Shown in pieces: positions 3,062 to 46,966 of a stretch of 64,000 bases of DNA (its first letter is position 1; every line of letters begins with the position of its first letter). This DNA comes from Candidatus Latescibacterota bacterium (GTDB lineage: Bacteria > Latescibacterota > UBA2968): contig OZ242010.1 of assembly GCA_965204745.1 (NCBI GenBank), forward strand, positions 3,488,001-3,552,000. Reading direction: 5' to 3'. The notes below the pieces were generated by a model. That model did no database searches and had not been told where the DNA came from. It saw nothing but the letters and a program-made list of their open reading frames with translations. The translations under genes and the position numbers were made by a program.

Positions 3062-3564
3062 GGTTGTGTTGACATTTCATCTTTTTGACGTTACGCACAG
3101 AGTAGCAAATGTGTTGCTTGTTCATTTAAGGCGTTTCCTTTGATGGCTTAGGTTGCTCTGATGGCATTGCGCGAGGGGACCTATCCCCCGGCCCCTTTCC
3201 TACGAGGAAAGGGGAGAAAAGCTCCTTTGATGGCTTCTCGCTCTGGTTGCTCTGATGGCGTTTTGCGAGGGCATAAAGCGATTAAATATCCCTCATCAAT
3301 CCCCTCGCAAATGATGGCTTCTCGCTCTGGTTGCTCTGATGGCGTTTTGCGAGGGCATAAAGCGATTAAATATCCCTCATCAATCCCCTCGCAAAACCGC
3401 TCACAGTTCCCCCCTTCCTCTAAGGAAGGGGGGCCAGGGGGGTAGGTCCCGATAAGGAGCGACTGTTCCAGTTTCTCAAATCGAGAGCATATCCTGCGAT
3501 AGGGCTTGATTTTCTCGATAAACCGCTCAAGCCAGTTGCTTTGCTCCTAAATGTCAACAGAACC
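3062..3564. mobile_element. MITE type A (TIR GGTT[G/C]TGTTGACATTT, TA-flanked) with an internal 84-bp tandem duplication (3228-3311/3312-3395)
   Basis: Left end TA-GGTTGTGTTGACATTT, right end AAATGTCAACAGAACC-TA; near-identical copy at 58660-59066; no transposase. Confidence 0.85.
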
Positions 3565-3571
3565 TAATGCG

Positions 3572-4939
3572 ATGCAACCTGCCAAATTTATTTTCAAAAA
3601 AATCGGCCCAATAAAAAAGGCCGAACTGGAATTAGGCGACATCACGATCATTGCCGGGCGCAACAACACCGGCAAGACGTATCTGGTGTACACGCTTTAC
3701 GGCTTTCTGAAACAGTGGTATAGGCAAAGGAATATATCGCCGGAAATAGAAAAAATAGTCGAAGAAGTGACAGAGAAGGGGCACTTCAAGCGCACCGTTG
3801 ATAGAGAAACGCTCGATCAAGAGCGCAAAAAAATAATCCGCGGCGTGACCCGTTCCTTCTCGCAAGAAGACTTGTCCGGTGTGTTCAGTTCTCCATCCGA
3901 TGCTTTTGAAGAATCCTCTATCGAAGTCGAACTTTCCGGTGAATTTCCCAAAAATTTACAAATTGATATTCCTTATCCAAAAGGTGGCCTTGTTTCAATC
4001 CAGTACGATGGAACCGATATTATCGCAATCGACAAAAACGCAAGAGAACAAAAGCGCGATGACCCCTTTTTTTCCTTTCTTATCTCGTATCGTTACTATC
4101 GTTTTCTGTTTCCAGAACTGTCTCTTGATCCGTTTATTCTCTCTGCCGAACGCTTTGGTATCTCGCTCTTCTACAAAGAACTCGATTTTACCAAGAACCA
4201 ATTGGTGGATTATTTGCAGAAAATGAGCGACGACAAAAATAGGGATCGATTTTCTCCATATATCTTCATAGACAAAACGACCAGCCGCTACGCGCTCCCC
4301 ATAAAAGACAATATTGACTACACCAGAGACATACCCACTCTGAAAGGACAAAGAAGCGAGCTTTACGACGACAAATTGTTTGATAAAATCAAGGACATGA
4401 TGGGGGGATACTATAGCACTTCCGGCGACGACATCGCATTTATCTCCAGGCGTAAAGGACGCAACTTTAATCTACCGTTGCACATCGCGTCCTCCTCAGC
4501 GCGTGGCCTGTCCGATTTGTATTTCTACCTGCGTCACGTAGCAAAAGAAAATCAACTCGTCATCATCGACGAGCCAGAGAGCCATCTCGATACGGCCAAC
4601 CAAATACAACTGGCGAGATTGTTGGCGCGGATGGCACAATCTAACCTGAAGGTTCTGATAACCACCCACAGCGACTACATCATCAAGGAAATCAACAATC
4701 TCATTATGCTCAGTAGGCTTAAGGAAAAAAAGAAGGTCGTTAAGGATCTGGGGTATAAAAAAGACGACTTTATCGAACCGGACGCAATTCGGGCGTATGT
4801 CGCAGAGGGGGATGGCTTGACCAAGTGTGAAATTGATGAATTTGGCATCGACATGCCCGTCTTTGACGAAACCATTGATGAAATCAATCGGACTTCAAAT
4901 GAACTTGCCTCGCGTCTCATAGAAGAAAAGGAGGCGTGA
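3572..4939 (+). CDS. ABC-type/AAA_15-AAA_21 ATPase (AbiEii/OLD-like defence ATPase)
   Basis: Walker A GRNNTGKT, signature ASSSAR, Walker B IIDEPESHLD, H-loop TTHS; the track ATG (3551) is within the MITE TIR. Confidence 0.85.
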   Translation: MQPAKFIFKKIGPIKKAELELGDITIIAGRNNTGKTYLVYTLYGFLKQWYRQRNISPEIEKIVEEVTEKGHFKRTVDRETLDQERKKIIRGVTRSFSQEDLSGVFSSPSDAFEESSIEVELSGEFPKNLQIDIPYPKGGLVSIQYDGTDIIAIDKNAREQKRDDPFFSFLISYRYYRFLFPELSLDPFILSAERFGISLFYKELDFTKNQLVDYLQKMSDDKNRDRFSPYIFIDKTTSRYALPIKDNIDYTRDIPTLKGQRSELYDDKLFDKIKDMMGGYYSTSGDDIAFISRRKGRNFNLPLHIASSSARGLSDLYFYLRHVAKENQLVIIDEPESHLDTANQIQLARLLARMAQSNLKVLITTHSDYIIKEINNLIMLSRLKEKKKVVKDLGYKKDDFIEPDAIRAYVAEGDGLTKCEIDEFGIDMPVFDETIDEINRTSNELASRLIEEKEA

Positions 4940-4940
4940 A

Positions 4941-5495
4941 ATGGCGATAAATTCGGTATTGGAAAGCGTTCTGATAGAAGATGTTGTGGAGACGCCAAGT
5001 AAGGATCAGACCATCACCCTTCAGGAAAAGGATGCGAATGTCGATATGGATGTGAAAATAGTTACACAGTCCGCGTCCGTCATCGCGATACGGATGAGTG
5101 CTAAGAACCACTTACCAATTATGCAAGATGGCCCGTGGAACCAGGTATGCGACTATCTGTTAGTCGTTGAATCAGCCGATGAAATTCACGCCGTTTTCAT
5201 TGAACTGAAGAAAACTCTTACACAAAAGAAAAAGCCAAGAGAACAACTACGGCGATCCCTGCCGTTTTTGGCGTATCTTCTTTCCGTCTGCAAAATCGAG
5301 AATAGCAACATTGATACAATGCGACTAAACACCAACTATTTCATTATAGGCGAGAAGTCGGACGAGAGGCTCGACAAGGGATTGGTGAGAATTGATCCTA
5401 ATAGAATGATTGAAAAGGAGCGGTACAAGGAGATCGAAATTGCGACATCTGTCAAACCTAGCTTCACGCTTGATGAATTGATAAACCCCAAGTAA
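4941..5495 (+). CDS. Hypothetical protein, probable PD-(D/E)xK nuclease fold; partner of the upstream ATPase
   Basis: Starts 1 nt after the ATPase stop, with GGAGG RBS; motif CDYLLV...FIELK...EQL. Confidence 0.6.
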   Translation: MAINSVLESVLIEDVVETPSKDQTITLQEKDANVDMDVKIVTQSASVIAIRMSAKNHLPIMQDGPWNQVCDYLLVVESADEIHAVFIELKKTLTQKKKPREQLRRSLPFLAYLLSVCKIENSNIDTMRLNTNYFIIGEKSDERLDKGLVRIDPNRMIEKERYKEIEIATSVKPSFTLDELINPK

Positions 5496-5683
5496 AGAGA
5501 TCTCCCATTCACGGACGTTCCGCAGTTCAAAGCAGGTATCTCAACAAGTGCCCTCGCAAAACTTAAAATGCCTTAAATTTTTTTGTAAAATGGCTACCCA
5601 ACTGTTTGTTTGTCTTGTTCTGTGGAAATAGATGCAGTATTATCTACAAAAATTCCATAGCCTTTGCCGAAAGGAGAAATACA

Positions 5684-6700
5684 TTGTCGGATATTGAAAT
5701 CAAAAAACGAAGCGCATTGCTTCAACAAATTGAGTCGAATCGCAATTCCAAGGCAGTCCTTTACGTGACTGGAGACCGCCAAGGTCTGGAAGCCCAAATT
5801 GGCCAAGATGCCATAGATTTATTTGTTGATCATTTAGACGAAATTGGGCCAACCGAAAAGATATCCCTCGTTCTTCACACATCTGGTGGCAGTACTTCCG
5901 CAGCATGGAATTTGGTTAATCTTTTTCACATGTTTTGTGATGACTTTGAAATCATAGCACTGGGCAAATGTATGAGTGCTGGCACGCTTGTATCACTGGG
6001 CGCAGACCGTATTGTCATGACTAAGCAGGCAACGCTAGGGCCTATTGACCCGAGTATCCAACACCCGCTTGGACCCTCTATTCCCGGAGCAAGCCCTGAA
6101 GCACGCGCTGGGGTAAGTGTTGAAGCGGTTGAAGGCTACCTCGATGCAATCCGGAAATGTGAGGCTGGCGCACTTTTTGAAGGCCAAGCTCTTATAGACC
6201 TATCAAATAAGGTCCATCCTCTCGTGCTTGGGCAGATTTTTCGATCCAGGCAACAGATAAGAGATCTCGCCGGACGACTCTTACAGAAACATACCGATAA
6301 ACAAGAACAGATAGACCAAATCGTTGACTTCCTGTGCTCTGAATCAGGTAGCCACGATTATACTATCAATCGCCGAGAAGCCAAGAGATTGGGGCTGAAT
6401 GTGGAAAAATGTTCCGAGGAACTCTATGAGATTCTTCGGCAATTACGCCACAGCTTTTCCACTCAAATGTTACTTCGGGAACCTTACGATATCAACACCT
6501 TGGCCGCGAATGGTAGTATGGAAAGGTACGAATTTACGCGTGTTTTGATCGAGAGTGTGGATCATGGGGCGCACCATTTCATTACGGCTGGAGAGATCGA
6601 AATCACGGAAGTAATTCAGCAAAACCAGGAAGGGACACCGTTCAAACAGGTCGCTATTCGCGACCAACGCAAATTTGAGGGATGGAGGAAGGTAGCATGA
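5684..6700 (+). CDS. SDH-family (ClpP/SppA-fold) serine protease
   Basis: TTG start with AAGGAG RBS; motifs LHTSGG, CMSAGT (Ser), LGPIDP (Asp), SHDY (His), INRREAK. Confidence 0.85.
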   Translation: MSDIEIKKRSALLQQIESNRNSKAVLYVTGDRQGLEAQIGQDAIDLFVDHLDEIGPTEKISLVLHTSGGSTSAAWNLVNLFHMFCDDFEIIALGKCMSAGTLVSLGADRIVMTKQATLGPIDPSIQHPLGPSIPGASPEARAGVSVEAVEGYLDAIRKCEAGALFEGQALIDLSNKVHPLVLGQIFRSRQQIRDLAGRLLQKHTDKQEQIDQIVDFLCSESGSHDYTINRREAKRLGLNVEKCSEELYEILRQLRHSFSTQMLLREPYDINTLAANGSMERYEFTRVLIESVDHGAHHFITAGEIEITEVIQQNQEGTPFKQVAIRDQRKFEGWRKVA

Positions 6701-23096: not shown

Positions 23097-23178
23097 TTTT
23101 TCGTTCACCATTGCGATTTTGAACGCGGAGAAAAAGCCGCGCCCGGTCTGTGCGACAGCTTTGCAAAGGAGGATTCAG

Positions 23179-23370
23179 ATGATCACCGCCATTTTCAGCC
23201 GCTGTTTGAACCTCATTTGGCGCTATGTTTTTCCCGCCTGTCCCACCGCGAAAATTGGCGTTCATGACGCCCATCTCCGTCTTGGAGCGCGGTTCTATTT
23301 TATTGCAAAACAATCTTTTAGGATGATCAGTACAGTGTACCCCCCCCCCCCCCCTCGGAGGGAGACTAAA
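23179..23370 (+). promoter_or_regulatory. Leader ORF (64 codons, AGGAGG SD) crossing a C15 tract (23340-23354), in frame with the adhesin
   Basis: AAAGGAGGATTCAG-ATG at 23179; poly-C directly before TCGGAGGGAGACTAAA-ATG (23371). Confidence 0.65.
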
Positions 23371-26300
23371 ATGGTGCGCTTTATTTTTCGTTTTCTGTCC
23401 CTTCCAACATGGATCGCCGTGTTGGTCATGCCCTTGCTGATCGCCCCCGCGACAGCGCAGATGACGCCCTCGAATACCGATACGACCCTCAGCGCGCTGA
23501 CCCTCGCGCCAGGCACTCTGCTTTCCACATTTGCATCCGATAAAACCACCTACGCATTTGCCGTTCAATCCGGCGCGACAGAGATCACCGTGACCGCGAC
23601 CCCAACCAATTCGGGGGCAACTGTCGCCATCACGCCGGCCGATGCCAACCCGGCCAGCGGCCACCAAGTCGACGTATCTACCCTGCCGGTCAGCATTCGC
23701 ATCGTGGTTTCCCCCGCTACGGGAACGACCACGCTGACCTATACGGTCTCTGCCGGCAATTTTACCGACTACGACACCGATGGCGACAACCTCATTGAAC
23801 TCGGTGCTGGGCAAACCGGGCTGGCGCAACTGCATGCCATGCGCTGGGACCTCAATGGCAATGGTTTCATAGACGCCAGTGCCACGACCAGCGATACGAC
23901 CGCCTACAATACCGCTTTCTCCAACCGGCCGCCGGGGATGGGTTGCGAGACCACCTGTATCGGCTACGAACTGACGGCGAACCTAAACTTTGACGAGAAC
24001 AACGACAACGAAATCACCGTAGCAGACACCACCTACTGGAACAGCGGCGCAGGCTGGGCGCCCATCGGCAGCAGTGCGACGAAATACACCGGCACCTTCC
24101 ACGGCAACGACAATACCATCTCCAACCTGTTTATTGACCGCTCTGCCGCCAGCAAAACCGGGCTATTCGGCTATGCCGAGGGCAACACGATCCGCAATTT
24201 GAGCCTGGTGAACGCCAATGTGACCGGCTCTGCTGAAACCGCCGTCCTTGTTGGCGAAGGCAACAATCTACAGCTCATGCACATCCGCGTCACCGGACGG
24301 GTCAGCGGGTTTGCACGAAGCGGCGGCTTGGTGGGCAGGCTGGCGCACGGCAACTCGACCATTACCGCCTGTCGTTCCGAGGTGGACGTCACTGGGTCTA
24401 ATATAAGCATCGGCGGCTTGGTGGGCTGGAGTAGCGGCACGATAACCGCTAGCTATGCTACCGGTGCAGTCAGCGGCGATGGTTACGTCGGCGGCCTGGT
24501 GGGCTTCCACGGCAACACCGGCAACCCAAAGGCCATCATACGCGCCAGCTATGCCACCGGCGTAGTCAGCGGCAACTCTGCCATCGGTGGCCTGGTCGGT
24601 GCCAACTTCTATTCCAGCACGATAACCGGTAGCTATGCCATCGGCCCGGTCAGTGCTAATTCACTGGTTGGTGGCTTGGTCGGTACCAACAATAATTCAT
24701 CAATTACCCACAGCTACTACGATAGAACCACCTCTAGACGTGGCGACACCGGACGCGGTGCTCCCCAGACCACCGCCGAGCTCCAAGGCCCCACGGGTTA
24801 TACCGGCATCTACATGACGAATTGGGACCTGAACCTGGACGGGCAACCGGGCGGCGATGATCCGTGGACCTTTGGCAAGACGGATCAGTATCCGGTGTTG
24901 AAGTATGCCGGCATGGACACCACCGCGCAGTATAACTTGCAACCGCCGAGCATTCCGACAAGTGTGACCGTGACGATAATAGCGGACACCTTGGACGTGC
25001 GGTGGCGTGGGGTGAGTGGTGCGACGGGGTACAAGGTGCAGTGGAAATCCGGCACGCAGAGCTACGATACCGCCTCGCGTGAGGCGACCGTCACGGGGAC
25101 GCGCCACAAGATTCCCAACTTGACGTTTGGGACGACCTACACAGTGCGTGTCATTGCCACCAAAATCGGTGTGCGCGATGGCACACCCTCAGCAGAGCAG
25201 ACCGGCGTTCGCCCCAGGCTGGGCAGTCCGACTGTGATGGTGGCGGCGAAGGTGGACACGCTGACCGTGACTTGGAATGCGGCGAACGGGGCGACCGGCT
25301 ACAAAGTGCAGTGGAAATCCGGGTCAGCGACTTATCCCACCTCCGATCTGGCGTTGGCCACGCGCGGGCAAGCCACAATCTCTGATGGGAGCACCACGAC
25401 CTACAAAATTTCTGGGCTGACCACAGGGACGACCTACACGATTCGCGTCATCGCCACGAGTACCAATATCAATGTAGCCGACAGTGCCCCTTCGGAGGAA
25501 GTCATGGTGACCTTGGCGACCACCAAACCCACCAATGTGCGCGTGACGCCGGGGCCGGTCCAACTCATTGTGGCTTGGACCGAGGCAACCGGCGCGACGG
25601 GCTACAAGGTGCAGTGGAAGTCCGGTGGACAAAGCTACAACACCTCTTCTCGCCAGGAGACGGTCTCTGGAGGGAGCACCACGACCTATACAATAGAGAA
25701 CCTGACTTTTGGCACGACCTACACGGTGCGCGTCACTGCTACCCTGGCAGGTGGGACCGATAGTAATCCCTCGGACGAGGTCATGGGCACGCCCCAAGGG
25801 ATCGATTACGATGGCGATGGCAATGGCCTCATCGATATTGAGACGCTGGCGCAACTGCATGCCATCCGCTGGGATCTCAACGGCGATGGTGCCATAGACG
25901 CAAGTGCCTCAACCAGCGATACGACCGCCTACAACGCCGCCTTTCCCAACCGAGACACCACCAGCAACGTCCGGATGGGTTGCCCTTCTGGGACCTGCAC
26001 CGGCTACGAACTGCTCAACAACCTAAATTTCGACACCGACGGGAGCGGGAGCGTAACCTCTGACGACACCTACCCCAACTGGACGCCCATCGGAGGCACC
26101 TACTCAACCACGTTCAAGGGCAATAACAAGACCATCTCCAACCTGCACATCAACCGTGGCAGTTGGGATTATGTTGGGCTGTTCGGCCGTGTCAGCGGCA
26201 ACATTTCCGGTCTGGGTCTGAAAAGTGTCAATGTAAGAGGCAGAAATCGAGTGGGTGGGTTGGTCGGTAATCAGGTAGGGGGTCGCATCCTGGGCTGTTT

Positions 26301-29300
26301 TGTCACAGGTCGCGTTGAGGGTACTGGTGACCATGTGGGCGGTTTAGCGGGTCGTTCAACCGGCAATAATACCGTCATCGCGGCCAGCTATGCCAATGCT
26401 ACGGTGAGTGGGACGAAGGAGAATGTCGGCGGTTTGGTGGGCGTCCTAGATGCTACGGTGATAGCGTCCTACGCCATCGGGCCGGTGACTGGATGGACGA
26501 GGGTAGGCGGTTTGGTGGGGCTCTTGGGCATTTCTCCTAGTTCGATTAAGACCAGCTATGCCACGGGGACAGTCACCGGGAGCCGACAATCATCCATCCA
26601 TCTAGGCGGATTGGTTGGGAGTGCACAATCCGGAGTGTCCCATAGTTACTGGGATAGGGAAAGTAGCGGTCACTCATCCAGTGCTGGTGGCACGAGCCAG
26701 ACCACCAGCGAGTTGCGGTCAGAAACGGACTACGACGGCATCTACGCCAACTGGAATGTGGATGTCGATGGCAGGCCTGGCAGTGACAACCCGTGGACCT
26801 TTGGTGCGGCGGATCAGTATCCCGTGTTGAAATATGCCGGCATGGACACCACCGCACAATTTGCAATGCAACCGCCGGGCATTCCGACCAGTGTGACCGT
26901 GACGGTGCAAGCGGACACCTTGGACGTGCGTTGGCGTGCGGCGAGTTATGCGACGGGGTACAAGGTGCAGTGGAAAGCCGGCGGGCAGAACTACGCCGTC
27001 TCGCGTCAGGCCATCACCACGGATACGCGCTACAAGATCGCCAACTTGATCGGCGGGACGACCTACACAGTGCGTGTCATTGCCACCAAGACCGGTGCGC
27101 GCGATGGCATGCCCTCGGCAGAGCAGACCGGCGTTCCCTCCGCACTGAGCAGACCGGCTGTGATGGTGGCGGCGGATGTGGACACGCTGACCGTGACTTG
27201 GAATGTGGTGAACGGGGCGACCGGCTACAAAGTGCAGTGGAAATCCGGGTCAGAGACTTATCCCAACGCCGATCTGGCGGCCGCCTTGCGCGGGCAAGCC
27301 ACCATCGTAGGCGGGGGCACCACGATCCACAAAATTTCTGGGCTGACCGCAGGGACGACTTACACGATTCGCGTCATCGCCACGAGTACCAATATCAATG
27401 TAGCCGACAGTGCCCCTTCGGAGGAAGTGACCGTGCTGGGCATTCCGGCTGTGATGGTGGTGGCGAAGGTGGACACGCTGACCGTGACTTGGAACGCGGT
27501 GGACGATGCAACCGGGTATAAGGTGCAGTGGAAATCCGGGTCAGAGACTTATCCCAACGCCGATCTGGCGTTGGCCACGCACGGGCAAGCCACTATCGCT
27601 GACGGGGGCACCACGACCTACGATATTTCTGGGCTGACCGCAGGGACGACCTACACGGTTCGCGTCATCGCCACGCGTACCAATATCAGTGCCCTCTCGG
27701 CAGAGCAGACCGGCGATCCCCTGTTGGGTAGCCCGACGGGTGTGGATGTGAGTGCGAAGGTGGACACGCTAACCGTGACTTGGAATGTGGTGGACGATGC
27801 AACCGGGTATAAGGTGCAGTGGAAATCCGGGTCAGCGACTTATCCCGTCTCCGATCTGGCGTCCGTCACGCACGGGCATGCCACAATCTCTGACGGAGGC
27901 ACCACGACCTACGATATTTCTGGGCTGACCGCAGGGACGACCTACACGGTTCGCGTCATCGCCACGCGTACCAATGTAGCCGACAGTACCCCCTCGGAGG
28001 AAGTGACCGGCGTTCCTCTGCTGGGCAGTCCGGCTGTGATGGTGGCGGCGAAGGTGGACACGCTGACCGTGACTTGGAATGTGGTGGACGATGCAACCGG
28101 GTATAAGGTGCAGTGGAAGTCCGGGTCAGAGACTTATCCCGCCGCCGATGAGCAGTCCGCCACGCGCGGGCAAGCCACCATCGCAGGCGGGAACACCACG
28201 ATCCACAAAATTTCTGGGCTGACCGCAGGGACGACCTACACGGTTCGCGTCATCGCCACGCGTACCAATGTAGCCGACAGTGCCCCCTCGGAGGAAGTCA
28301 TGGTGACCTTGGCGACCACCAGGCCCACCAATGTGCGCGTGACGCCGGGGCCGGGCCAACTCATTGTGCGTTGGACCGAGGCAACCGGCGCGACGGGCTA
28401 CAAGGTGCAGTGGAAGTCCGGTGGACAAAGCTACAACACCTCTTCTCGCCAGGAGACGGTCTCTGGGATGAGCACCACGACCTACACGATAGAGAACCTG
28501 ACGCTTGGCACGACCTACACGGTGCGCGTCATTGCTATCCTGTCAGGTGGGATGGATAGCACGCCCTCGGACGAGGTCATGGGCACGCCCTCAGGGATCA
28601 ATTACGACAGCGATGGCGATGGCCTCATCGACATTAAGACGCTGGCGCAACTGCATGCCATCCGCTGGGATCTCAACGGCGATGGTGCTGTGGACGCAAG
28701 TGCCTCGTCCAGCGATACGACCGCCTACAACGCCGCCTTTCCCTACCGAGACACCACCAGCAACGTCCGGATGGGTTGCCCTTCCGGAACCTGCACCGGC
28801 TACGAACTGCTCAACAACCTCGACTTCGACACCGACGGGAGCGGGAGCGTAACCTCTGACGACACCTACCCCAACTGGTCGCCCATCGGAGGCACCTACT
28901 CGGCAACGTTCAAGGGCAATAACAAGACGATCTCCAACCTGCACATCAACCAGGGCAGTTGGAATGATGTTGGGCTGTTCTCCCGTGTCAGCGGCAACAT
29001 TTCCGGTCTGGGGCTGAAAAATGTCAATGTAAGAGGCAGAGAACGAGTGGGTGGGTTGGTCGGTAATCAGGTGGGAGGCCGCATCCTGGGCTGTTTTGTC
29101 ACGGGTCGCGTTGAGGGTACTCGTAACTCTGTGGGCGGTTTAGCGGGTGAATCAAGCGGCAATAATACCGTCATCGCGGCCAGCTATGCCAATGCTGTGG
29201 TCTCCGTAGGGCATATTCGTGCAGGGGCCGGCGGTTTGGTGGGCAAACTAAGTGCTACGGTGATAGCGTCCTACGCCATCGGGCCGGCGAGTGGACATTC

Positions 29301-32300
29301 CAGGGTAGGCGGTCTGGTGGGGCAGTTGGGCATTTCTCCTAGTTCGGTTAGTACCAGCTATGCCACGGGGACGGTCACTGGGCGCTACCATGACTCCAGC
29401 CAACTAGGCGGATTGATCGGGCATGCACAAGCCGGAGTGTCCCATAGTTACTGGGATAAGGAAAGTAGCGGTCGCTCATCCAGTGCTCGCGGCACGGGCC
29501 AGACCACCAGCGCGTTGCGGTCGGAAACGGATTACAACGGCATCTACGCCAACTGGAATGTGGATGTCGATGGCAGGCCTGGCAATGACGCTCCGTGGAC
29601 CTTTGGCGCGGCGGATCAGTATCCCGTGTTGAAATATGCCGGCATGGACACCACCGCACAATTTGCAATGCAACCGCCGGGCATTCCGACAAGTGTGACC
29701 GTGACGGTGCAAGCGGACACCTTGGACGTGCGTTGGCGTGCGCCGAGTAATGCGACGGGGTACAAGGTGCAGTGGAAATCCGGCGCGCAGAACTACGACA
29801 CCTCGCGTCAGACGACCGTCACGGGGACGCGCTACAAGATCGCCAACTTGATCGGCGGGACGACTTACACAGTGCGGGTCATTGCCACCAAGGCCGGTGT
29901 CCGCGATGGCCGGCCCTCGGCCGAGCAGACCGGCGTTCCCCTGCTGGGCATTCCGACTGTGATGATGGTGGCAGCGAAGGTGGACACGCTGACCGTGACT
30001 TGGAATGCGGTGAACGGGGCGACCAGCTACAAAGTGCAGTGGAAATCCGGGTCAGAGACTTATCCCGCCGCCGATGAGGAGTCCGCCACGCACGGGCAAG
30101 CCACTATCGCTGGCGGGAGCACCACGATCCACAAAATTTCTGGGCTGACCCCAGGGACGACCTACGCGATTCGCGTCATCGCCACGCGTACCAATGTAGC
30201 CGACAGTGCCCCTTCGGAGGAAGTGATCACCCTTCTCACGCTGGGTAGCCCAACGGGTGTGGAGGTGAGTGCGAAGGTGGACACGCTGACCGTGACTTGG
30301 AATGCGGTGCCCCTCGCAACCGGGTATAAGGTGCAGTGGAAATCCGGGGCACAGACTTATCCCACCTCCGATCTGGCGTTGGCCACGCATGGGCAAGCCA
30401 CCATCGCAGGCGGGAACACCACGATCCACAAAATTTCTGGGCTGACCACAGGGACGACTTACGCGATTCGCGTCATCGCCACGCACACCACAACGGCCGG
30501 CAACAGTGCCCCTTCGGAGGAAGTCATGGTGACCTCGGCGACCACCAGGCCCACCAATGTGCGCGTGACGCCGGGGCCGGCCCAACTCATTGTGGCTTGG
30601 ACCGAGGCAACCGGCGCGACGGGCTACAAGGTGCAGTGGAAGTCCGGTGGACAAAGCTACAACACATCTGATCGCCAGGCGACGGTCTCTGGGATGAGCA
30701 CCACGACCTACACGATAGAGAACCTGACTTTTGGCGCGACCTACACGGTGCGCGTCACTGCTACCCTGGCAGGTGGGACCGATAGCGATCCCTCGGACGA
30801 AGTCATGGGCACGCCCCAAGCGATCAATTACGACAGCGATGGCGATGGCCTCATTGACATTAAGACGCTGGCGCAACTGCATGCCATCCGCTGGGATCTC
30901 AACGGCGATGGGGTCGTCGCCGATAATGATACCACGAACTACAACGCCGCCTTTCCCAACCGAGACACTACCAGCAATGTCCGGATGGGTTGCCCTTCCG
31001 GAACCTGCACCGGCTACGAACTGCTCAACAACCTTGACTTTGACGAGAATGGCGACAGCGAAATCACTTCAGCAGACGCCACCTACTGGGACAGCGGCTT
31101 CGGCTGGCTACCCATCGGCACAAACGCCGCCAGATACACCGGCGATTTCAAGGGCAACGGCTACACTATCGACAACCTGACCATCAACCGACCCGCTGTC
31201 GTTGAAGTGGGATTATTCGGCAATGCCGACACCGCCTCCCGCATCGAGTCCGTCGGCGTAACCAATGCCAGTGTTGCGGGAGGCGAATATGCCGGCGCTC
31301 TGGTCGGTGCCCTGCGCGGCACAGTCGTCGCCTGCTACTCCACCGGCAACGTTTCGGTGACGACTAGGACCGCCGGCGGACTGGTCGGATGGACGCCCAA
31401 CGCGATTACCTCAAGCTACTCCACCGCATCCGTCAGCGGCCCTGAGCACGTCGGCGGACTGCTGGGAGCAAGCCAAGGCGGCACCGTAACGAACTCCTAC
31501 TCCATCGGCATGGTTACCGGCACCGGCAGTTCTCCACTCATCGGCGGGTTGATAGGCTCCGGCACGGGCGGCACCGCAAGCTACTGGGACACCCAAACCA
31601 GCGGCTGTACATCCGGCGGCAGCAACGGTTGCACAACCAGCGCCGGCGGTGGCGGCGTTACCGGACTGACGACCAGCGAGCTCATAAGCCCCACCACCTA
31701 CGGTGCCACCAGCAACGACACCTACTACGGCTGGAACGCCAACCTCGACGGACAACCCGGCAACGATGATCCGTGGACCTTTGGCACGACGAATCAGTAC
31801 CCGGTCTTGAAGTATGCCGGCATGGACACCACCGTGCAATTTCAACGCCAACCCGCGATAGTGATGTTGACACTGATGCCCTCGTCGATCTCGGAAAGCG
31901 GCGGGATGAGTACCGTGACCGCGACGCTGACACGGTCGTGGAGCACGGCGACGACGATCACGGTGCGGCCTGTGACCGGTGCTTACACGGTGGGGATGGA
32001 TTCGACGATCACCATCGCGGCAGGGCAAACCGCGAACGCGTCGGATACGGTGGTCATCACAGCGGTGGACAACACCCGAGACGAACTTAATCGCGACGTG
32101 ACCGTGTCCGTTGTATCAGCCAACGCCCAGGGCAGTGTGGTCCTCCCGACTGCAATAACGATCACCGATGATGACCCGCCGCCGAGGCTCTCGATTAGTT
32201 CGCCGAGTGCGGTTGAGGGCACTGCCCTGACGTTCACCGTTAGATTGAATGCAGAAAGCGGCAAGGAGGTGACGGTGGCGTATGCAGACGCGGGCACGGG

Positions 32301-33228
32301 CAGCGCGACTTCGGGGACCGATTACACCGCGCTTACCGCAGGAACCCTGACCTTCGCGGCGGGCACGACCAGCCAGACCATCGCTGTTTCTGTGAGCGAC
32401 GACGGGGATGATGAGCCGAACGAGACCGTGATCGTGACGCTGAGCAGTGCGACCAATGCGACCATAAGCACGGCGCAAGGCACAGGAACGATTATCGATG
32501 ACGATGGCATGCCTGCGCTGAGTATCGGTTCGCCAAGCGTGATTGAAGGCGTGACCAGCGCGACCCTGACCTTTCAGGTGTACCTACGCCCGGCGCACAC
32601 GGCACAGGTGACAGTGGCGTATGCAGACGCGGGCACGGGCACCGCGACTTCGGGGACCGATTACACCGCGCTCACCGCAGGGACCCTGACCTTCGCGGCG
32701 AGCGATACCATCCAGACCATCCCTGTTTCTGTGACCGACGACTCGGATGATGAGCCGAACGAGACCGTGATCGTGACGCTGAGCAATGCGACCAATGCGA
32801 CCATAAGCACGGCGCAAGGCACAGGGACGATTATCGATGACGAAACACCGAGTGCCAACTTGGATGTGGATGGCGATGGCCGGGTGAGATTGTTCTCGGA
32901 TATAATCCTGGTCATTCGATACGTCCTCTTCTTCCGGAACGAGGCCCTCCTCAGAGGGAACGTCATCGAGCCAACTGCCACGCGCACGACCGCTCAAGAA
33001 ATTGAACCCTACCTCGACACGTTGGTCGATCAGAACATTCTCGATGTGGATGGCGATGGCGATGTGAGGCTGTTCTCGGATATAATCCTGATCATTCGAT
33101 ATGTCCTCTTCTTCCGGAACGAGGCCCTCGTCAGAGGGAACGTCATCGAGCCAACTGCCACACGCACGACCGCTCAAGAAATTGAACCCTACATCCGAAG
33201 CCTCTATCCCGACTCCCACTTCCAATGA
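23371..33228 (+). CDS. Giant secreted adhesin-like protein (~3285 aa): signal peptide, cadherin-like domain, 4 GLUG beta-helix modules, 13 FN3 repeats, Calx-beta domains, duplicated dockerin-like C-terminus
   Basis: MVRFIFRF...APATA signal; repeated VGGLVG motifs; 13 YKVQWK FN3 motifs; VTVAYAD...GTLTFAAG...DDGDDEPNETV Calx-beta; 2x LDVDGDG...LFSDIIL.IRY. Confidence 0.9.
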   Translation: MVRFIFRFLSLPTWIAVLVMPLLIAPATAQMTPSNTDTTLSALTLAPGTLLSTFASDKTTYAFAVQSGATEITVTATPTNSGATVAITPADANPASGHQVDVSTLPVSIRIVVSPATGTTTLTYTVSAGNFTDYDTDGDNLIELGAGQTGLAQLHAMRWDLNGNGFIDASATTSDTTAYNTAFSNRPPGMGCETTCIGYELTANLNFDENNDNEITVADTTYWNSGAGWAPIGSSATKYTGTFHGNDNTISNLFIDRSAASKTGLFGYAEGNTIRNLSLVNANVTGSAETAVLVGEGNNLQLMHIRVTGRVSGFARSGGLVGRLAHGNSTITACRSEVDVTGSNISIGGLVGWSSGTITASYATGAVSGDGYVGGLVGFHGNTGNPKAIIRASYATGVVSGNSAIGGLVGANFYSSTITGSYAIGPVSANSLVGGLVGTNNNSSITHSYYDRTTSRRGDTGRGAPQTTAELQGPTGYTGIYMTNWDLNLDGQPGGDDPWTFGKTDQYPVLKYAGMDTTAQYNLQPPSIPTSVTVTIIADTLDVRWRGVSGATGYKVQWKSGTQSYDTASREATVTGTRHKIPNLTFGTTYTVRVIATKIGVRDGTPSAEQTGVRPRLGSPTVMVAAKVDTLTVTWNAANGATGYKVQWKSGSATYPTSDLALATRGQATISDGSTTTYKISGLTTGTTYTIRVIATSTNINVADSAPSEEVMVTLATTKPTNVRVTPGPVQLIVAWTEATGATGYKVQWKSGGQSYNTSSRQETVSGGSTTTYTIENLTFGTTYTVRVTATLAGGTDSNPSDEVMGTPQGIDYDGDGNGLIDIETLAQLHAIRWDLNGDGAIDASASTSDTTAYNAAFPNRDTTSNVRMGCPSGTCTGYELLNNLNFDTDGSGSVTSDDTYPNWTPIGGTYSTTFKGNNKTISNLHINRGSWDYVGLFGRVSGNISGLGLKSVNVRGRNRVGGLVGNQVGGRILGCFVTGRVEGTGDHVGGLAGRSTGNNTVIAASYANATVSGTKENVGGLVGVLDATVIASYAIGPVTGWTRVGGLVGLLGISPSSIKTSYATGTVTGSRQSSIHLGGLVGSAQSGVSHSYWDRESSGHSSSAGGTSQTTSELRSETDYDGIYANWNVDVDGRPGSDNPWTFGAADQYPVLKYAGMDTTAQFAMQPPGIPTSVTVTVQADTLDVRWRAASYATGYKVQWKAGGQNYAVSRQAITTDTRYKIANLIGGTTYTVRVIATKTGARDGMPSAEQTGVPSALSRPAVMVAADVDTLTVTWNVVNGATGYKVQWKSGSETYPNADLAAALRGQATIVGGGTTIHKISGLTAGTTYTIRVIATSTNINVADSAPSEEVTVLGIPAVMVVAKVDTLTVTWNAVDDATGYKVQWKSGSETYPNADLALATHGQATIADGGTTTYDISGLTAGTTYTVRVIATRTNISALSAEQTGDPLLGSPTGVDVSAKVDTLTVTWNVVDDATGYKVQWKSGSATYPVSDLASVTHGHATISDGGTTTYDISGLTAGTTYTVRVIATRTNVADSTPSEEVTGVPLLGSPAVMVAAKVDTLTVTWNVVDDATGYKVQWKSGSETYPAADEQSATRGQATIAGGNTTIHKISGLTAGTTYTVRVIATRTNVADSAPSEEVMVTLATTRPTNVRVTPGPGQLIVRWTEATGATGYKVQWKSGGQSYNTSSRQETVSGMSTTTYTIENLTLGTTYTVRVIAILSGGMDSTPSDEVMGTPSGINYDSDGDGLIDIKTLAQLHAIRWDLNGDGAVDASASSSDTTAYNAAFPYRDTTSNVRMGCPSGTCTGYELLNNLDFDTDGSGSVTSDDTYPNWSPIGGTYSATFKGNNKTISNLHINQGSWNDVGLFSRVSGNISGLGLKNVNVRGRERVGGLVGNQVGGRILGCFVTGRVEGTRNSVGGLAGESSGNNTVIAASYANAVVSVGHIRAGAGGLVGKLSATVIASYAIGPASGHSRVGGLVGQLGISPSSVSTSYATGTVTGRYHDSSQLGGLIGHAQAGVSHSYWDKESSGRSSSARGTGQTTSALRSETDYNGIYANWNVDVDGRPGNDAPWTFGAADQYPVLKYAGMDTTAQFAMQPPGIPTSVTVTVQADTLDVRWRAPSNATGYKVQWKSGAQNYDTSRQTTVTGTRYKIANLIGGTTYTVRVIATKAGVRDGRPSAEQTGVPLLGIPTVMMVAAKVDTLTVTWNAVNGATSYKVQWKSGSETYPAADEESATHGQATIAGGSTTIHKISGLTPGTTYAIRVIATRTNVADSAPSEEVITLLTLGSPTGVEVSAKVDTLTVTWNAVPLATGYKVQWKSGAQTYPTSDLALATHGQATIAGGNTTIHKISGLTTGTTYAIRVIATHTTTAGNSAPSEEVMVTSATTRPTNVRVTPGPAQLIVAWTEATGATGYKVQWKSGGQSYNTSDRQATVSGMSTTTYTIENLTFGATYTVRVTATLAGGTDSDPSDEVMGTPQAINYDSDGDGLIDIKTLAQLHAIRWDLNGDGVVADNDTTNYNAAFPNRDTTSNVRMGCPSGTCTGYELLNNLDFDENGDSEITSADATYWDSGFGWLPIGTNAARYTGDFKGNGYTIDNLTINRPAVVEVGLFGNADTASRIESVGVTNASVAGGEYAGALVGALRGTVVACYSTGNVSVTTRTAGGLVGWTPNAITSSYSTASVSGPEHVGGLLGASQGGTVTNSYSIGMVTGTGSSPLIGGLIGSGTGGTASYWDTQTSGCTSGGSNGCTTSAGGGGVTGLTTSELISPTTYGATSNDTYYGWNANLDGQPGNDDPWTFGTTNQYPVLKYAGMDTTVQFQRQPAIVMLTLMPSSISESGGMSTVTATLTRSWSTATTITVRPVTGAYTVGMDSTITIAAGQTANASDTVVITAVDNTRDELNRDVTVSVVSANAQGSVVLPTAITITDDDPPPRLSISSPSAVEGTALTFTVRLNAESGKEVTVAYADAGTGSATSGTDYTALTAGTLTFAAGTTSQTIAVSVSDDGDDEPNETVIVTLSSATNATISTAQGTGTIIDDDGMPALSIGSPSVIEGVTSATLTFQVYLRPAHTAQVTVAYADAGTGTATSGTDYTALTAGTLTFAASDTIQTIPVSVTDDSDDEPNETVIVTLSNATNATISTAQGTGTIIDDETPSANLDVDGDGRVRLFSDIILVIRYVLFFRNEALLRGNVIEPTATRTTAQEIEPYLDTLVDQNILDVDGDGDVRLFSDIILIIRYVLFFRNEALVRGNVIEPTATRTTAQEIEPYIRSLYPDSHFQ

Positions 33229-37916: not shown

Positions 37917-38347
37917 CCAATTTGATTTTAAGTTGTCCGTATCCTGCCTCCCATCCGAGATGAATGAGAAACAGACATTCCGTAGAGATTATGCGTTGCT
38001 TGTCTAAAACGTTTGGCCCTAAAGCATCGTTTGTTGCCTTCGATGCCTTCGGCGACTTCTTTTTTGCTTGCCCAAAAAAGAAGCAAAAAAGGGCACTCTC
38101 ATGCGCCGAGAGGCTTGCACAGCGCAAATCGCTTTTGTAACAGAACGATAGGCGTCAGCCTGCAAAGTGGGTTGCAAGATGGACGTTGGTTGCGAGACGG
38201 ACTTGCGCGCTGTGCGTGATGGCTTTAGCTGATGGTCTTTTGCGATGGCATTTTTGCAAGGGCTTCTCTGAATGACTGCGGAATGTCAAGGGGATCGCTT
38301 GCGCTCAGCATATCGCATCATATTAGGCCAACAGAAAATCAATTTGG
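37917..38347. mobile_element. MITE type B (TIR CCAA[A/T]TTGATTTT, TA-flanked)
   Basis: TA-CCAATTTGATTTT ... AAAATCAATTTGG-TA; body homologous to ~40455-40787. Confidence 0.8.
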
Positions 38348-39456
38348 TATTCGGGTCGCCCTCCAAGCACGTTCTTTTCCCACAACTCGGAAAGCGAATA
38401 GTCTTCGAGCCATTCTCCGAGAGCCTCGGCGTCCAGCTGTCTGAAGGCAGAACTGCGACCTTTGCGTTCGACAATGACGATATCCTCTGGCTCAAAGCAA
38501 TCCACGAGTGGCATGGATTGCGTGGCGACGATGACCTGTATTTTGGTCGCTACGGCGCGGATCAGCCCTCCGACAATGTTGATCGCGTAGGGGTGCAACC
38601 CGAGTTCTGGTTCATCGAGAATCAAAACATCCGGCAAATCTTGCTCGGGTTGGAGGAGCAGGGTGACAAGGGCGATGACCCGCAACATGCCATCCGACGC
38701 CTGCGACACGCCGAACACCTGATCGCTGTTTCGCTCGCGCCAGTTCAAAAGAAGGCTACCGTACTGCGGATCCAGTTCAAAGTCCGAAAAGAAAGGCAGG
38801 ATTAGGCGGATGGTATCTACAATTCGCTGGTAGCACCTGCCGTCGCTTTCTCTCAAGCGGAACAAAACGGGCGCGATATTGGCCGCATCTTCCTTCAGCC
38901 AGCGGTTGTCGTCTATATGCCACTTGCCGCGGATACGGGCGGTGTCCGACGTGTTGTGGAATTGATATACGACGATTTTTTGCAGGATGTTCCTAATGAC
39001 GCGGGCGGTCGTATCCTCGGCGGCCCTTGCGAGGAGTTGCGGCGCACGGTGGCCGGCACCCGTTTCCGTCCACGGCGCAACAGTACCGTAGCGTTTGTCC
39101 GAGAACCGGTACCGTTCGTCAGCAAAAATCAACGAGTCTCTAGCTGCAAAAAACAGCCGAAATGCGTATTGATTTTCACCGGACTCGGTTCGCAACGTCA
39201 GTTCGGCTTCGATCTCGCGGGTCTTGGCCGGACCATCGTGCAAAAGCGTGCTAGCCCCGCCTTGTTGACCCACGTAAAGCGGAAAATGGTCTGGGTCTGA
39301 CAACGCCCAACTCAACATGCGAAAAAAGGAGATGAAGTTGGACTTGCCTGCGCCGTTGGGGCCAATGAGTGCCGTTAAAGGACGAGGCTTGAAATTCTCC
39401 AACGCTTGAATGGTTTTGAACCCCTTGAGGGTTATTGCTTCAAGTTTGTTTCGCAT
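38323..39456 (-). CDS. AAA_21/COG4637-type ABC ATPase; C-terminus extended into the MITE
   Basis: GPNGAGKSN, SDGMLR, LDEPELGLHP, ATQS, WEKNVLGGRP. Confidence 0.88.
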   Translation of the reverse strand: MRNKLEAITLKGFKTIQALENFKPRPLTALIGPNGAGKSNFISFFRMLSWALSDPDHFPLYVGQQGGASTLLHDGPAKTREIEAELTLRTESGENQYAFRLFFAARDSLIFADERYRFSDKRYGTVAPWTETGAGHRAPQLLARAAEDTTARVIRNILQKIVVYQFHNTSDTARIRGKWHIDDNRWLKEDAANIAPVLFRLRESDGRCYQRIVDTIRLILPFFSDFELDPQYGSLLLNWRERNSDQVFGVSQASDGMLRVIALVTLLLQPEQDLPDVLILDEPELGLHPYAINIVGGLIRAVATKIQVIVATQSMPLVDCFEPEDIVIVERKGRSSAFRQLDAEALGEWLEDYSLSELWEKNVLGGRPEYQIDFLLA

Positions 39457-43694: not shown

Positions 43695-45515
43695 TTATTG
43701 GCGTGTGCTGTGATGAAAGTCTTGGAGTGAGCGAATGCGAATGGTGCTGTTGTTCTTTAGGGATTGGATGCCGGCAACAGCCGCGTCCGCGCCGGAGAGG
43801 GTGGTCGTATAGGGCAAGCCGTATTGCACCGCGGCCCTGCGAATTTCCGGGTCCGCGGCCTGCGATTGTTCGCCTGCGGGCGTGTTGATCATCAGGGAAA
43901 TTTCGCCGTTTTTGATCGCGTCGAGAATATTCGGCCGGCCCTCCTGGATTTTGAGGATCAAGTCGCAGGCAATGCCGCGGTTGTTGAGGAAAGCGTGCGT
44001 CCCCCGGGTGGCGACAAGGCGGAAGTCCAGCTCGGACAGGTGCTGGGCAATGGGTACGAGGGCTTCTTTGTCGCGGTCATTGACGCTCAAAAACACAGTG
44101 CCCGCTTGGGGCAAGCACACGCCCGCGCCGAGTTGCGCCTTTTGAAAACTGAGGCCAAAGTCCGTGTCGATGCCCATGACCTCGCCGGTCGATTTCATCT
44201 CCGGGCCGAGCACGGTGTCCACCCCGGGAAATTTGTTGAAGGGCAAAACCGCTTCTTTCACGGCAATGTGCTGGATGGGCACTTCGCGGGTAAAGCCCTG
44301 GTCTGCGAGCGTGCGCCCGACCATAGCGCGGGCCGCGACTTTGGCTAAGGGCACGCCAATGGCCTTGCTGACAAAGGGCACGGTGCGCGACGCGCGCGGA
44401 TTGACTTCGATGATAAAAACCTCGCCGTCTTGAATGGCGAATTGAATATTCATCAGGCCGACCACATTGAGCGTGCGGGCCAAGGCATGCGTGTGGCGTC
44501 TCAATACTTCGCGGTTGGCATCGGCGAGTCGATACGGCGGCAACACGCACGCGCTATCGCCCGAGTGAATGCCCGCGCTTTCGATGTGCTGCATCATGCC
44601 GCCGATGACGACCGCAGTGGGGTCCGCCACCGCATCCACGTCAAATTCGTGCGCGTCTTCCAAAAACCGGTCGATGAGTACCGGGTGTTCGGGCGATGCT
44701 TCGATGGCATTGTGCATATAGGCGATGAGGGCCGCGCGGTCGTACACAATCGCCATCGCGCGCCCGCCGAGCACATAAGACGGCCGCACCAAAATGGGAT
44801 AGCCGATGCGCTCGGCTATGGCGATGGCCTCATCGGTGGTCACAGCCGTGCCGTTCTCCGGTTGGCGGATGCCCAATGTTTTGATGAGCGCGCCAAAGCG
44901 TTTGCGGTCTTCGGCGAGGTCGATGGCGTCCGGCGATGTGCCTGCGATCTTCAGCCCGCCGCGCTCGAGGTCGCGCGCGAGATTGAGGGGCGTCTGCCCG
45001 CCGAACTGCACGATGACCCCATCCGGCTGTTCCACATCCGCAATGCCGAGGACGTCCTCGGCGGTAAGGGGTTCAAAATAGAGTTTGTCCGACGTGTCGT
45101 AATCCGTGGACACGGTCTCCGGATTGGAATTGACCATAATCGTTTCAAACCCGTCTTCTTTGAGGGCATACGCCGCGTGGCAACAACAATAGTCGAACTC
45201 GATACCCTGCCCGATGCGATTGGGGCCGCCGCCCAAAATCATGATCTTTTTGCGATTGGAGCGCGTGGCCTCGGTTTCGGCCTCGTACGTGGAATAGTGA
45301 TAAGGCGTGTACGCTTCAAACTCCGCCGCGCACGTATCCACGGTTTTGAAAACCGGCCTGACCCCGAGTTCTTTTCGCAAAGCGCGCACGGTCCACGCAT
45401 CTGCGCGCCACAAATGCGCGAGTTGCGCGTCCGAAAACCCGTGGCGTTTGGCTTTGAGCAGGTCCGCACGCGAGATGCGCGCCCGCAAGTCGTCGAGGGT
45501 GTGCTGTTGGGTCAT
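43695..45515 (-). CDS. carB: Carbamoyl-phosphate synthase large subunit, C-terminal part (second ATP-grasp plus MGS domain)
   Basis: [50 protein letters not shown]. Confidence 0.9.
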
Positions 45516-46966
45516 GGGGCGTCCATCAGGGCGGCGAGTTCTCTTTCCACTTCCACGATTCGCCGCATGTTGTCGAGAAACCAAGGGTCGATTTGAGTCG
45601 CGTCAAAAATTTCCCGCACGGACAGGCCCGCGTCATAAGCCGCTTTGAGATAGGCCAACCGCTGCGAGTTGGGTTCGCGCAAGCCGCGCTCTAGGGCCTC
45701 GCGCGAGAGCCTGTCCGGGGGAATGTCCTTGCCATCCGCGCCAAAACCCGCACGCCCGATTTCGAGAGAGCGCAACCCTTTTTGCAGGGCTTCCACAAAT
45801 GTGCGCCCAATGGCCATGGTTTCGCCCACGGATTTCATCTGCGTGCCCAGCGAGTCCGCGGTTTGGGGAAATTTTTCAAAGGTCCAGCGCGGGATTTTGA
45901 CCACGCAATAGTCGATAGTGGGTTCAAACGACGCTGGCGTTTCCCGCGTGATGTCGTTTTGAATTTCGTCGAGGGTGTAGCCAATCGCCAGCTTGGCCGC
46001 GATCTTGGCAATGGGAAAACCCGTGGCTTTCGACGCCAAGGCCGAACTGCGGGACACGCGCGGATTCATCTCGATGACCACGCGCCGCCCCGTAGTGGGA
46101 TCGACCGCGAACTGGATGTTAGACCCGCCGGTCTCCACGCCGATCTCCCGAATGCAGGCGATAGCCTCGTCGCGCATGGCCTGATACTCTTTGTCGCTAA
46201 GCGTTTGCACCGGCGCAACGGTGATGGAATCGCCGGTGTGAACGCCCATCGGATCGAAGTTTTCAATCGAGCAGATGATGACGACATTGTCGTTTTGATC
46301 GCGCATGACCTCGAGTTCAAATTCCTTCCAGCCGATGATCGATTCCTCCACGAGAATCTCGCTCGTGGGCGACAAGGCGAGTCCGTGCGCCGCGGCATCC
46401 CTGAACTCTTCGACATTGTAAGCCGTGCCCGCGCCCGTGCCCCCCAAGGTGTAGGACGGCCGGATAATGGCCGGAAAGCCGATGTCGGACGCGATGTCAA
46501 GCGCCTCTTTGAGGGTGTACGCAAATCGGCCTTTGGGAAAGTCCAAGCCAATTTTGCCCATCGCCTTTTGAAAGGCTTCGCGGTTTTCCGCTTTTTCAAT
46601 GGCGTGCGGTTTCGCGCCGATCATCTCCACGCCGAATTTTTCGAGTGTGCCCCGCTCGTGCAATGCCATCGCCGTGTTGAGGCCCGTTTGCCCGCCCAGC
46701 GTGGGGAGAAGCGCGTCCGGGCGTTCTTTTGCTATGATCGCCGCGCACACCTCGGGGGTAACGGGTTCGATATACGTTTGATCCGCCATCTCGGGATCGG
46801 TCATGATGGTGGCCGGGTTGCTGTTGACCAACACGACTTCGTACCCCTCTTCTTTGAGGGCCTTGCACGCTTGCGTGCCCGAATAGTCAAATTCACAGGC
46901 TTGCCCAATCACAATGGGGCCAGAGCCGATGAGCATGATTTTGTGGAGATCGTTTCGTTTGGGCAT
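45512..46966 (-). CDS. carB: Carbamoyl-phosphate synthase large subunit, N-terminal part
   Basis: [46 protein letters not shown]. Confidence 0.92.

Follow-up and report, generated by a model that had tools for sequence, protein, structure and literature searches.

Paralog-specific substitutions beside the GGLVG motifs of GLUG beta-helix modules suggest diversifying selection in giant proteins of a Candidatus Latescibacterota bacterium

Plant R proteins and the variable lymphocyte receptors of lampreys are built on a leucine-rich repeat (LRR) solenoid with a conserved core, exist in many germline copies, and carry positively selected residues at alternate, outward-facing strand positions. Chlamydial Pmp proteins, with their GGA[ILV] and FxxN repeats, and Bordetella pertactin are expanded or polymorphic beta-helix surface adhesins with short Gly-rich repeats and variable exposed parts. 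Mtd and TvpA, targets of diversity-generating retroelements (DGRs), present a few hypervariable ligand-contact residues on a constant scaffold. Here we describe two genes for giant GLUG-module proteins, termed adhesin 1 and adhesin 2, in a 64,000-nucleotide stretch (the window, positions 3488001-3552000) of the single-contig genome of a Candidatus Latescibacterota bacterium (assembly GCA_965204745.1, contig OZ242010.1; 5.48 Mb, 56.5% GC). In two types of GLUG module, a ratio of non-synonymous to synonymous substitution rates (dN/dS, or omega) above 1 beside the GGLVG motifs is well supported. We regard the proteins as a paralogous surface-protein family with positively selected solenoid positions that are predicted to be exposed.

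The adhesins resemble the LRR receptors in having a constant solenoid core, diversified strand residues in a fixed register, and many copies; exposure of the diversified residues is predicted here. They differ in being bacterial beta-helix proteins rather than LRR horseshoes, in having no somatic assembly, and in that only 2 of 5 module types vary. Pmp and pertactin are autotransporter passengers, whereas the adhesins carry a signal peptide, spacers made of fn3 and Calx-beta domains, and repeats at the C-terminus; a beta-barrel was not seen in them. Variation in the adhesins affects single strand residues, and in Pmp and pertactin inserted repeat loops. Unlike Mtd and TvpA, the adhesins are accompanied by no DGR reverse transcriptase (RT), template repeat or adenine pattern, and their scaffold is not a C-type lectin fold; their diversity, known here from paralog comparison, lies between gene copies. 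None of the titles listed in the literature searches dealt with variability or selection in GLUG modules, and none listed was relevant to sponge symbionts with diversifying selection on surface proteins or to a Latescibacter sponge adhesin or dockerin.

The genes and modules compared are the following (module types are defined below).

23371 to 33228, + strand: adhesin 1 gene, 3285 codons from the ATG at 23371, from translation and Pfam.
62507 to 64000, + strand: 5' end of the adhesin 2 gene, which has 5667 codons (genome 3550507-3567510) and 8 GLUG modules and continues past the window.
23821 to 24918, + strand: A1m1, the first GLUG module of adhesin 1, of the 'head' type, 366 residues, with its beta-helix coils at about 24181-24720.
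From 62957, continuing past the window, + strand: A2m1, the head module and first module of adhesin 2.
25846 to 26847, + strand: A1m2, a variable module of type B.
28642 to 29649, + strand: A1m3, a variable module of type B, paralog of A1m2.

Adhesins 1 and 2 align without gaps over 478 codons, of which 52 differ, 17 silently and 35 with an amino-acid change (Nei-Gojobori synonymous differences, sd, 19; non-synonymous differences, nd, 37; dN/dS 0.66). Within codons 284-457 (24220-24740 against 63356-63876), 16 of 174 codons differ; 15 change the residue, and the sole silent codon is GCC/GCA at 24241 (sd 3.0 on 136 synonymous sites, nd 17.0 on 386 non-synonymous sites). Contrasting this part with codons 1-283 (sd 16, nd 20) gave p = 0.039. 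Flanks were fixed beforehand as positions -4 to -1 or +1 to +3 around the motif G[GA][LMI][VLITA]G, which makes 35 codons in the head module; 10 of the 15 residue changes lie in these flanks, and 1 lies inside a motif. These counts confirm what the initial annotation had noticed in 24220-24740, namely that nearly all changes are non-synonymous, with one silent exception, and that they cluster beside GGLVG; every substitution it listed (S>Y, F>S, G>A, DG>YF, NSAI>DTDT, L>R, TNN>LNS) is present. It had also reported the same pattern between modules 2 and 3 of adhesin 1, and this too was reproduced: A1m2 and A1m3 differ in residue at 18 of 35 flank codons and at 31 of 274 framework codons (proportion of non-synonymous differences, pN, 0.383 in the flanks and 0.068 in the framework; synonymous counterpart, pS, 0.128 in the framework).

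The three closest head modules, those of adhesins 1 and 2 and a copy at genome position 4113558, form a trio with only one possible topology. The hypervariable codons in A1m1, and one further variable group, are given below with the trio's forms separated by slashes; multi-hit terms are model terms for codon changes at more than one base.

24229 to 24231, + strand: S/Y/N codon, preceding coil one, which is degenerate (AVLVG); P(omega>1) 0.968 when multi-hit terms are left out, below 0.9 when they are included.
24478 to 24483, + strand: DG/YF/NA codons, at -4 and -3 of the coil d GGLVG; P(omega>1) 0.93 and 0.92 with multi-hit terms.
24574 to 24585, + strand: NSAI/DTDT/NNTT codons, at -4 to -1 of the coil e GGLVG; P(omega>1) of the middle two 0.97 and 0.995.
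24664 to 24666, + strand: L/R/H codon, at -2 of the coil f GGLVG; P(omega>1) 0.97.
24685 to 24693, + strand: variable TNN/LNS/TNN codons, at +1 to +3 after the coil f GGLVG; P(omega>1) 0.92 and 0.998 without multi-hit terms, both below 0.9 with them.

Among the 35 flank codons of the trio, 13 vary in residue, 5 of them with three different residues, and none is variable only silently; in the remaining 136 codons of the helix, the residue varies at 6, and 2 more vary only silently. A fixed-sites maximum-likelihood (ML) analysis of the trio gave omega_flank 3.58 (likelihood-ratio test statistic, LRT, 15.0), and with multi-hit terms omega_flank was 2.6-3.0 (LRT 7.1-8.9, p 0.008-0.003). Four of the five three-state codons are linked by single-base steps (e.g. 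TCT-TAT-AAT, TCT-ACT-AAT), suggesting a succession of point substitutions; for the fifth, CTG/CGG/CAT, a two-base step is needed.

The two adhesins belong to a large family in this genome. A tblastn search with the first module returned about 140 module-sized matches genome-wide, and a hidden Markov model search located GLUG modules in 46 open frames of at least 300 codons, some of which are pieces of frameshifted genes. Together these 46 frames amount to about 112,000 codons, or some 6% of the genome. About 120 full modules, all stop-free, were extracted; the 120 modules contain 445 GGLVG-type motifs, and were clustered at 70% identity or more into the types below, listed with the fourth module of adhesin 1.

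Head type: 8 copies, the first module of 8 genes, including the adhesin 1 and adhesin 2 copies of the 24220-24740 comparison.
Type B: 16 modules, including modules 2 and 3 of adhesin 1.
Type C: 13 modules. Type D: 7 modules.
Type E20: 20 modules, from shorter proteins.
30868 to 31827, + strand: A1m4, type C, conserved among 13 paralogous modules (M0 omega 0.20, LRT 0.0).

Site models M1a and M2a were compared for each type with our own code (GY-type, F3x4, IQ-TREE tree). For the 8 head sequences the LRT was 120.6 (omega2 7.4) without multi-hit terms, and 25.9 (omega2 4.2, 8.7% of sites) with multi-hit terms in both models. For the 16 type B sequences the corresponding values were 299 (omega2 4.8) and 67.5 (omega2 3.1, 15.8% of sites). 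In the head type, sites with P above 0.9 under the multi-hit models are residues 37, 43, 220, 221, 253, 254 and 282, plus one gap column, and 5 of the 7 sites on the reference sit at -4 to -2. In type B, selected sites occupy 14 of 35 flank codons and 7 of 299 others (Fisher p 9e-11). When segments were analysed on their own trees, the LRT was 1.2 for the pre-helix segment, 14.0 for the first half of the helix and 24.9 for the second half in the head type, and 0.0, 55.1 and 62.5, respectively, in type B.

The identical code detected no positive selection in types C (13 sequences), D (7) and E20 (20), with LRTs of 0.0, 2.05 and 0.0; these types have an M0 omega of 0.20-0.35 and no positive-selection class. 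Since the LRTs are null in these three types and in the pre-helix segments, the signal is confined to the helix in two of the module types, and does not arise generally from the method or the family. Each giant protein therefore mixes 'constant' (types C and D) and 'variable' (head and B) GLUG modules.

Relaxed constraint by itself would be an alternative account of these data. Exposed flanks would then be free to vary, with omega about 1, and the excess would come from multi-nucleotide mutations, mosaic ancestry and single-tree models. Part of its support comes from the pooled paralog pairs. From the 120 modules, 56 non-overlapping nearest-paralog pairs were drawn, and the 40 with at least 80% residue identity were used. 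Nei-Gojobori dN/dS over these pairs was 1.49 at -4 to -1, 1.86 at +1 to +3, 0.17 in the motif and 0.48 in the rest. By register, dN over pooled dS was 1.71, 1.33, 1.70 and 0.64 at -4 to -1, 1.62, 0.77 and 1.10 at +1 to +3, and 0-0.55 at the motif positions. Fixed-sites ML on the same pairs gave omega_flank 1.57 (LRT 34.5), and 2.07 (LRT 21.8) with a separate synonymous rate for the flanks.

Several points weigh against diversifying selection as the explanation. Leaving out codons with differences at 2-3 bases lowered pooled omega_flank to 0.89, and modelling multi-nucleotide changes brought it to 0.96 (LRT 0.25); instantaneous double and triple changes improved the pooled fit by about 606 log-likelihood units. 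A narrower class chosen post hoc (-4, -3, -2, +1) gave omega 1.24 (p 0.037). The adhesin 1/adhesin 2 pair by itself is not significant (Fisher p = 0.31), and 3 of the 5 module types lack a selection signal. On the side of method, the codon-model code is our own and carries no benchmark against PAML or HyPhy, and the mixture models rescale branch lengths without re-optimising them. Each alignment is given a single tree and a single synonymous rate in the site models, while the paralogs of a 46-frame family surely recombine; segment-specific trees lessen this problem and do not abolish it. The flanks of type B hold indels, so that some flagged columns may be alignment artefacts.

Clustered changes are also common throughout the modules, as relaxed constraint would have it: differences at 2-3 bases account for 90 of 235 changed flank codons and for 381 of 1593 changed codons elsewhere. 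Because significance of the pooled pairs is lost under the multi-hit model, the case for selection is not rested on them, and the pooled flank omega of about 1 implies an effect specific to module type. Family-wide, the flanks evolve near the neutral rate; measured against synonymous change, this is about 3 times the pace of the framework (omega 0.34).

Against relaxed constraint, the head and B types reject omega<=1 even with multi-hit terms in both the null and the alternative model, and their helix segments do so on their own trees as well. The trio, whose topology is unique, retains omega of 2.6-3.0, while LRTs from identical code stay near 0 in the pre-helix segments and in types C, D and E20. 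In the trio, three residues are found at 5 of 35 flank codons, and synonymous change in the helix is near zero. We judge relaxed constraint on its own to be rather unlikely. The initial annotation's proposal of diversifying selection beside GGLVG is well supported for the head and B types (omega2 4.2 and 3.1 in the site models); it does not hold for types C, D and E20, or for the pooled flanks, and so is not general to GLUG modules.

Concerted evolution offers another route to the pattern. Gene conversion would homogenise the frameworks and halt at mismatched flanks, so that the flank differences would be old and dS artificially low. A mosaic history of this kind fits the distribution of synonymous changes between adhesins 1 and 2 (16 in codons 1-283 and 3 in codons 284-457), and also a non-flank patch of the third paralog that is shared by as many as 15 further genomic sites. 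The flanks, however, show no excess of synonymous divergence, which argues against old flanks in a conversion-homogenised framework: by the synonymous clock they are not older than the framework (rate multiplier 0.75; local dS 0.09 and 0.06 against 0.106), and no flank codon of the trio is variable only silently. Each framework piece of about 60 bases between flanks would need a separate conversion tract, and selection for diversity would itself be needed to hold the flanks apart while conversion went on. Concerted evolution appears improbable as the source of the flank differences.

Flank segments might alternatively be copied from other GLUG repeats by cassette-type gene conversion, as at pilE/pilS or vlsE, and the 445 motifs would provide many possible donors. 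Donors were sought in this one genome, for the patches of the trio only, by exact match with 8-base flanks. Each form of the two large patches, DG/YF/NA and NSAI/DTDT/NNTT, is found once in the genome, and the forms of the other flank patches tested (NISI, TNN) either occur a single time or recur only at corresponding positions in close paralogs. All 18 blastn matches to 24220-24740 lie within long GLUG open frames; there is therefore no template-like copy and there are no silent cassettes. Donor cassettes were accordingly rejected, and we regard a conversion origin of this sort as very unlikely.

A DGR or a similar system of targeted hypermutation, which the initial annotation had named as something to look for, seems to us almost certainly not involved. 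In its favour, most variable codons of the trio change at positions 1-2 and keep a third-position pyrimidine, as AAY-templated DGR codons would. Across the family, however, third positions are pyrimidines in 62-75% of flank codons and in 72% elsewhere, and differences involving A make up 140 of 249 (56%) in the flanks and 1045 of 2152 (49%) elsewhere; there is neither adenine-specific bias nor NNY restriction of flank codons. The variable sites are spread over about 500 bases in five separate patches, and no template repeat near-identical to 24220-24740 was found in the genome. The genome's only RVT_1 match is not of the DGR type; it belongs to a retron Ec67-family RT/endonuclease fusion (NCBIfam 708 bits, cut-off 450) at about 5010687-5012423 (+ strand), 1.5 Mb from the adhesins. 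Directly upstream of this RT is a 131-residue open reading frame (ORF) of no known family. A DGR was rejected on these grounds (retron-type RT only, no template repeat, no adenine bias).

With no DGR RT, template repeat, adenine bias or donor cassettes found, 'antibody-like', the term used in the initial annotation, is too strong. Ordinary point mutation followed by selective fixation is the simplest reading of how the flank changes arose.

An AlphaFold2 model of the head module was built from an alignment of 82 modules, all from the source genome (mean predicted local distance difference test score, pLDDT, 87.8; predicted template modelling score 0.89; each 10-residue block in 101-300 at least 90). 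DSSP assigned three short strands, stacked parallel, to every coil (about 28 residues). In each coil the strands cover positions -3 to 0, motif positions 3-4 plus +1 to +2, and a 'TIT' segment, and the motif residues G-L form the turn between the first two strands. Foldseek ranked 3N6Z first (E 9.3e-6, template modelling scores 0.52/0.55, probability 1.00), followed by 7UVK, 6XJB and 6XJA, and a sequence profile matched 3n6z at E 2.1e-14 together with the same IgA1-protease entries. The model thus supports a GLUG beta-helix scaffold similar to 3N6Z; the scaffold named in the initial annotation is borne out by this fold match and by the Glug score of adhesin 1 given below. Its 'loops' need revision, since the variable elements in the model comprise 1-4 residues where two of the strands end, with pLDDT of at least 90 throughout, rather than long loops.

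The selected positions share a register across successive coils and alternate as i, i+2, and type B shows the same '* *' alternation. From this fixed register, the alternation and the DSSP strand assignment, we infer that the selected residues would face outward and line up from coil to coil, on the pair of faces joined by the Gly-Gly-Leu corner.

The Pfam motif and the fold of the modules are shared with 3N6Z (BACOVA_03286) and with the N-terminal domain of Gram-positive IgA1 metalloproteases (6XJA, 6XJB, 7UVK). Excerpts of PMC7695701 report that the N-terminal beta-helix domain of the Streptococcus pneumoniae IgA1 protease contacts the IgA1 Fab, so that in IgA1 proteases such a domain can be a protein-binding module. 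The adhesins differ from IgA1 proteases in having no M26 catalytic domain, in repeating the module 4-8 times between runs of fn3, and in carrying paralog-specific hypervariable positions, which those excerpts of PMC7695701 do not describe for IgA1-protease proteins.

Adhesin 1 comprises, in order, a signal peptide, a Cadherin-like domain, four GLUG modules with runs of fn3 between them, two Calx-beta domains and C-terminal repeats. Pfam placed fn3 in 13 stretches, with Glug at 94.6 bits (49.3 bits in adhesin 2; PF07581 cut-off 20.5), two Calx-beta domains and the Cadherin-like domain. Peptidase_M26_N scored 16.1 bits (E 0.0067), under its cut-off of 27.7, and no M26 catalytic family was found by Pfam among the 3369 residues of the adhesin 1 ORF. 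An identity as M26 IgA1-specific metalloprotease was rejected, as the catalytic domain with its zinc-binding motif was lacking in the Pfam scan. The duplicated Asp/Gly-rich segments at the C-terminus (DVDGDG...F) look dockerin-like by eye, and no dockerin family was found at E<=0.01 in the Pfam scan of adhesin 1.

The gene most likely starts at ATG 23371 rather than at the TTG 23119 of the ORF list, because a signal-peptide-like N-terminus, common to the ATG start of adhesin 2, begins there. The mechanical ORF opens 84 codons 5' of this ATG, and the extension (23119-23370) has no counterpart in the paralog at 62507.

Among 18 genus-mate genomes, 4 gave any match to the GLUG modules at E<=1e-10 and 14 gave none, all matches being at 50% identity or less. 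The source genome has 89 matches, one relative has 33 and three relatives have 2-4. No ortholog-level match was found among the 30 related genomes searched, where the best foreign identity is 50%. The GLUG expansion is thus recent and lineage-specific, because 4 of the 18 genomes of the genus match and none does so above 50% identity.

In three places, two long overlapping frames both contain GLUG modules (genome 3793801-3797024, 4165850-4171350 and 5294073-5307333); such pairs are probably family members broken by frameshift.

The bacterium occurs in sponge metagenomes: runs with that label contain 35-48% of the sampled words. A search of metagenome runs returned 13 runs across 6 studies. In two sponge-labelled runs from different studies, 213 and 154 pieces were at least 99% alike. 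Logan contigs aligned from four runs are about 90-340 bases long, with none spanning the region, such that alleles and cross-mapped paralogs are indistinguishable; most variant letters in them are paralog states. At 24478-24483 a fourth form, AAT ACT, occurs in contigs from 3 runs beside GAT GGT, TAT TTT and AAT GCT, at a locus that is not assignable.

Both adhesin genes are surrounded by housekeeping genes (ruvCAB, hisG, carB-like, gltX-like), and no secretion or mutagenesis genes adjoin either of them. Two adjacent, slightly overlapping ORFs on the - strand (43695-45584 and 45512-46966) both contain CPSase_L_D1/D2, the first also MGS, and represent either a naturally split carB or a frameshift. 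Genes for AAA_15/AAA_21 ATPases, AbiEii-like or OLD-like, are present at 3551-6700 (+ strand) and 38323-39456 (- strand); 3' of the former are a 184-residue ORF of no family and then a ClpP-like SDH-type serine protease. These loci may be defence-related cassettes.

Taken as a whole, the data are in our view probably best explained by paralog-specific surfaces on a constant beta-helix, driven by diversifying selection after duplication. The two genes would encode giant secreted, fibre-like surface proteins of a lineage-specific GLUG family. Each module forms a beta-helix with three sides, made of about six coils of some 28 residues, in which the conserved V-G-G-L-V-G, S-Y-A-x-G and hydrophobic residues at -1 and -7 make up the core and the tight Gly-Gly-Leu corner. 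In the head (8 copies) and type B (16 copies) modules, the residues of the corner strands at -4 to -2 and at +1 and +3 have been repeatedly replaced between paralogs by non-synonymous point substitutions. Their side chains are predicted to point outward and to stack as two stripes along one edge of the helix, and positive selection after gene and module duplication would have fixed the changes. Each gene copy would most likely acquire its own binding surface. The outcome would be a module set, encoded in the germline, that shares one scaffold but differs in binding surface, beside the constant types C and D in the same proteins; a host, another microbe or a phage is a candidate source of the ligand.

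A broader proposal, which we make only tentatively and consider doubtful, is that about nine giant fibre proteins mixing constant and variable modules (8 head, 16 type B) could form a germline 'recognition repertoire' in which the cell displays two dozen distinct binding surfaces, all built on a single rigid beta-helix. Such a repertoire would be a bacterial beta-helix counterpart of the LRR-based receptor families, and its variable modules could hold or discriminate host and microbial partners.

Many uncultured bacteria encode giant GLUG beta-helix proteins, almost none of which has a known function. The present result flags likely ligand-contacting residues, about 3-5 positions per coil, separates variable from constant modules, and thereby offers specific targets to structural and binding work. 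A sharp lineage-specific GLUG expansion of this kind is an entry point to the interaction of such bacteria with their surroundings.

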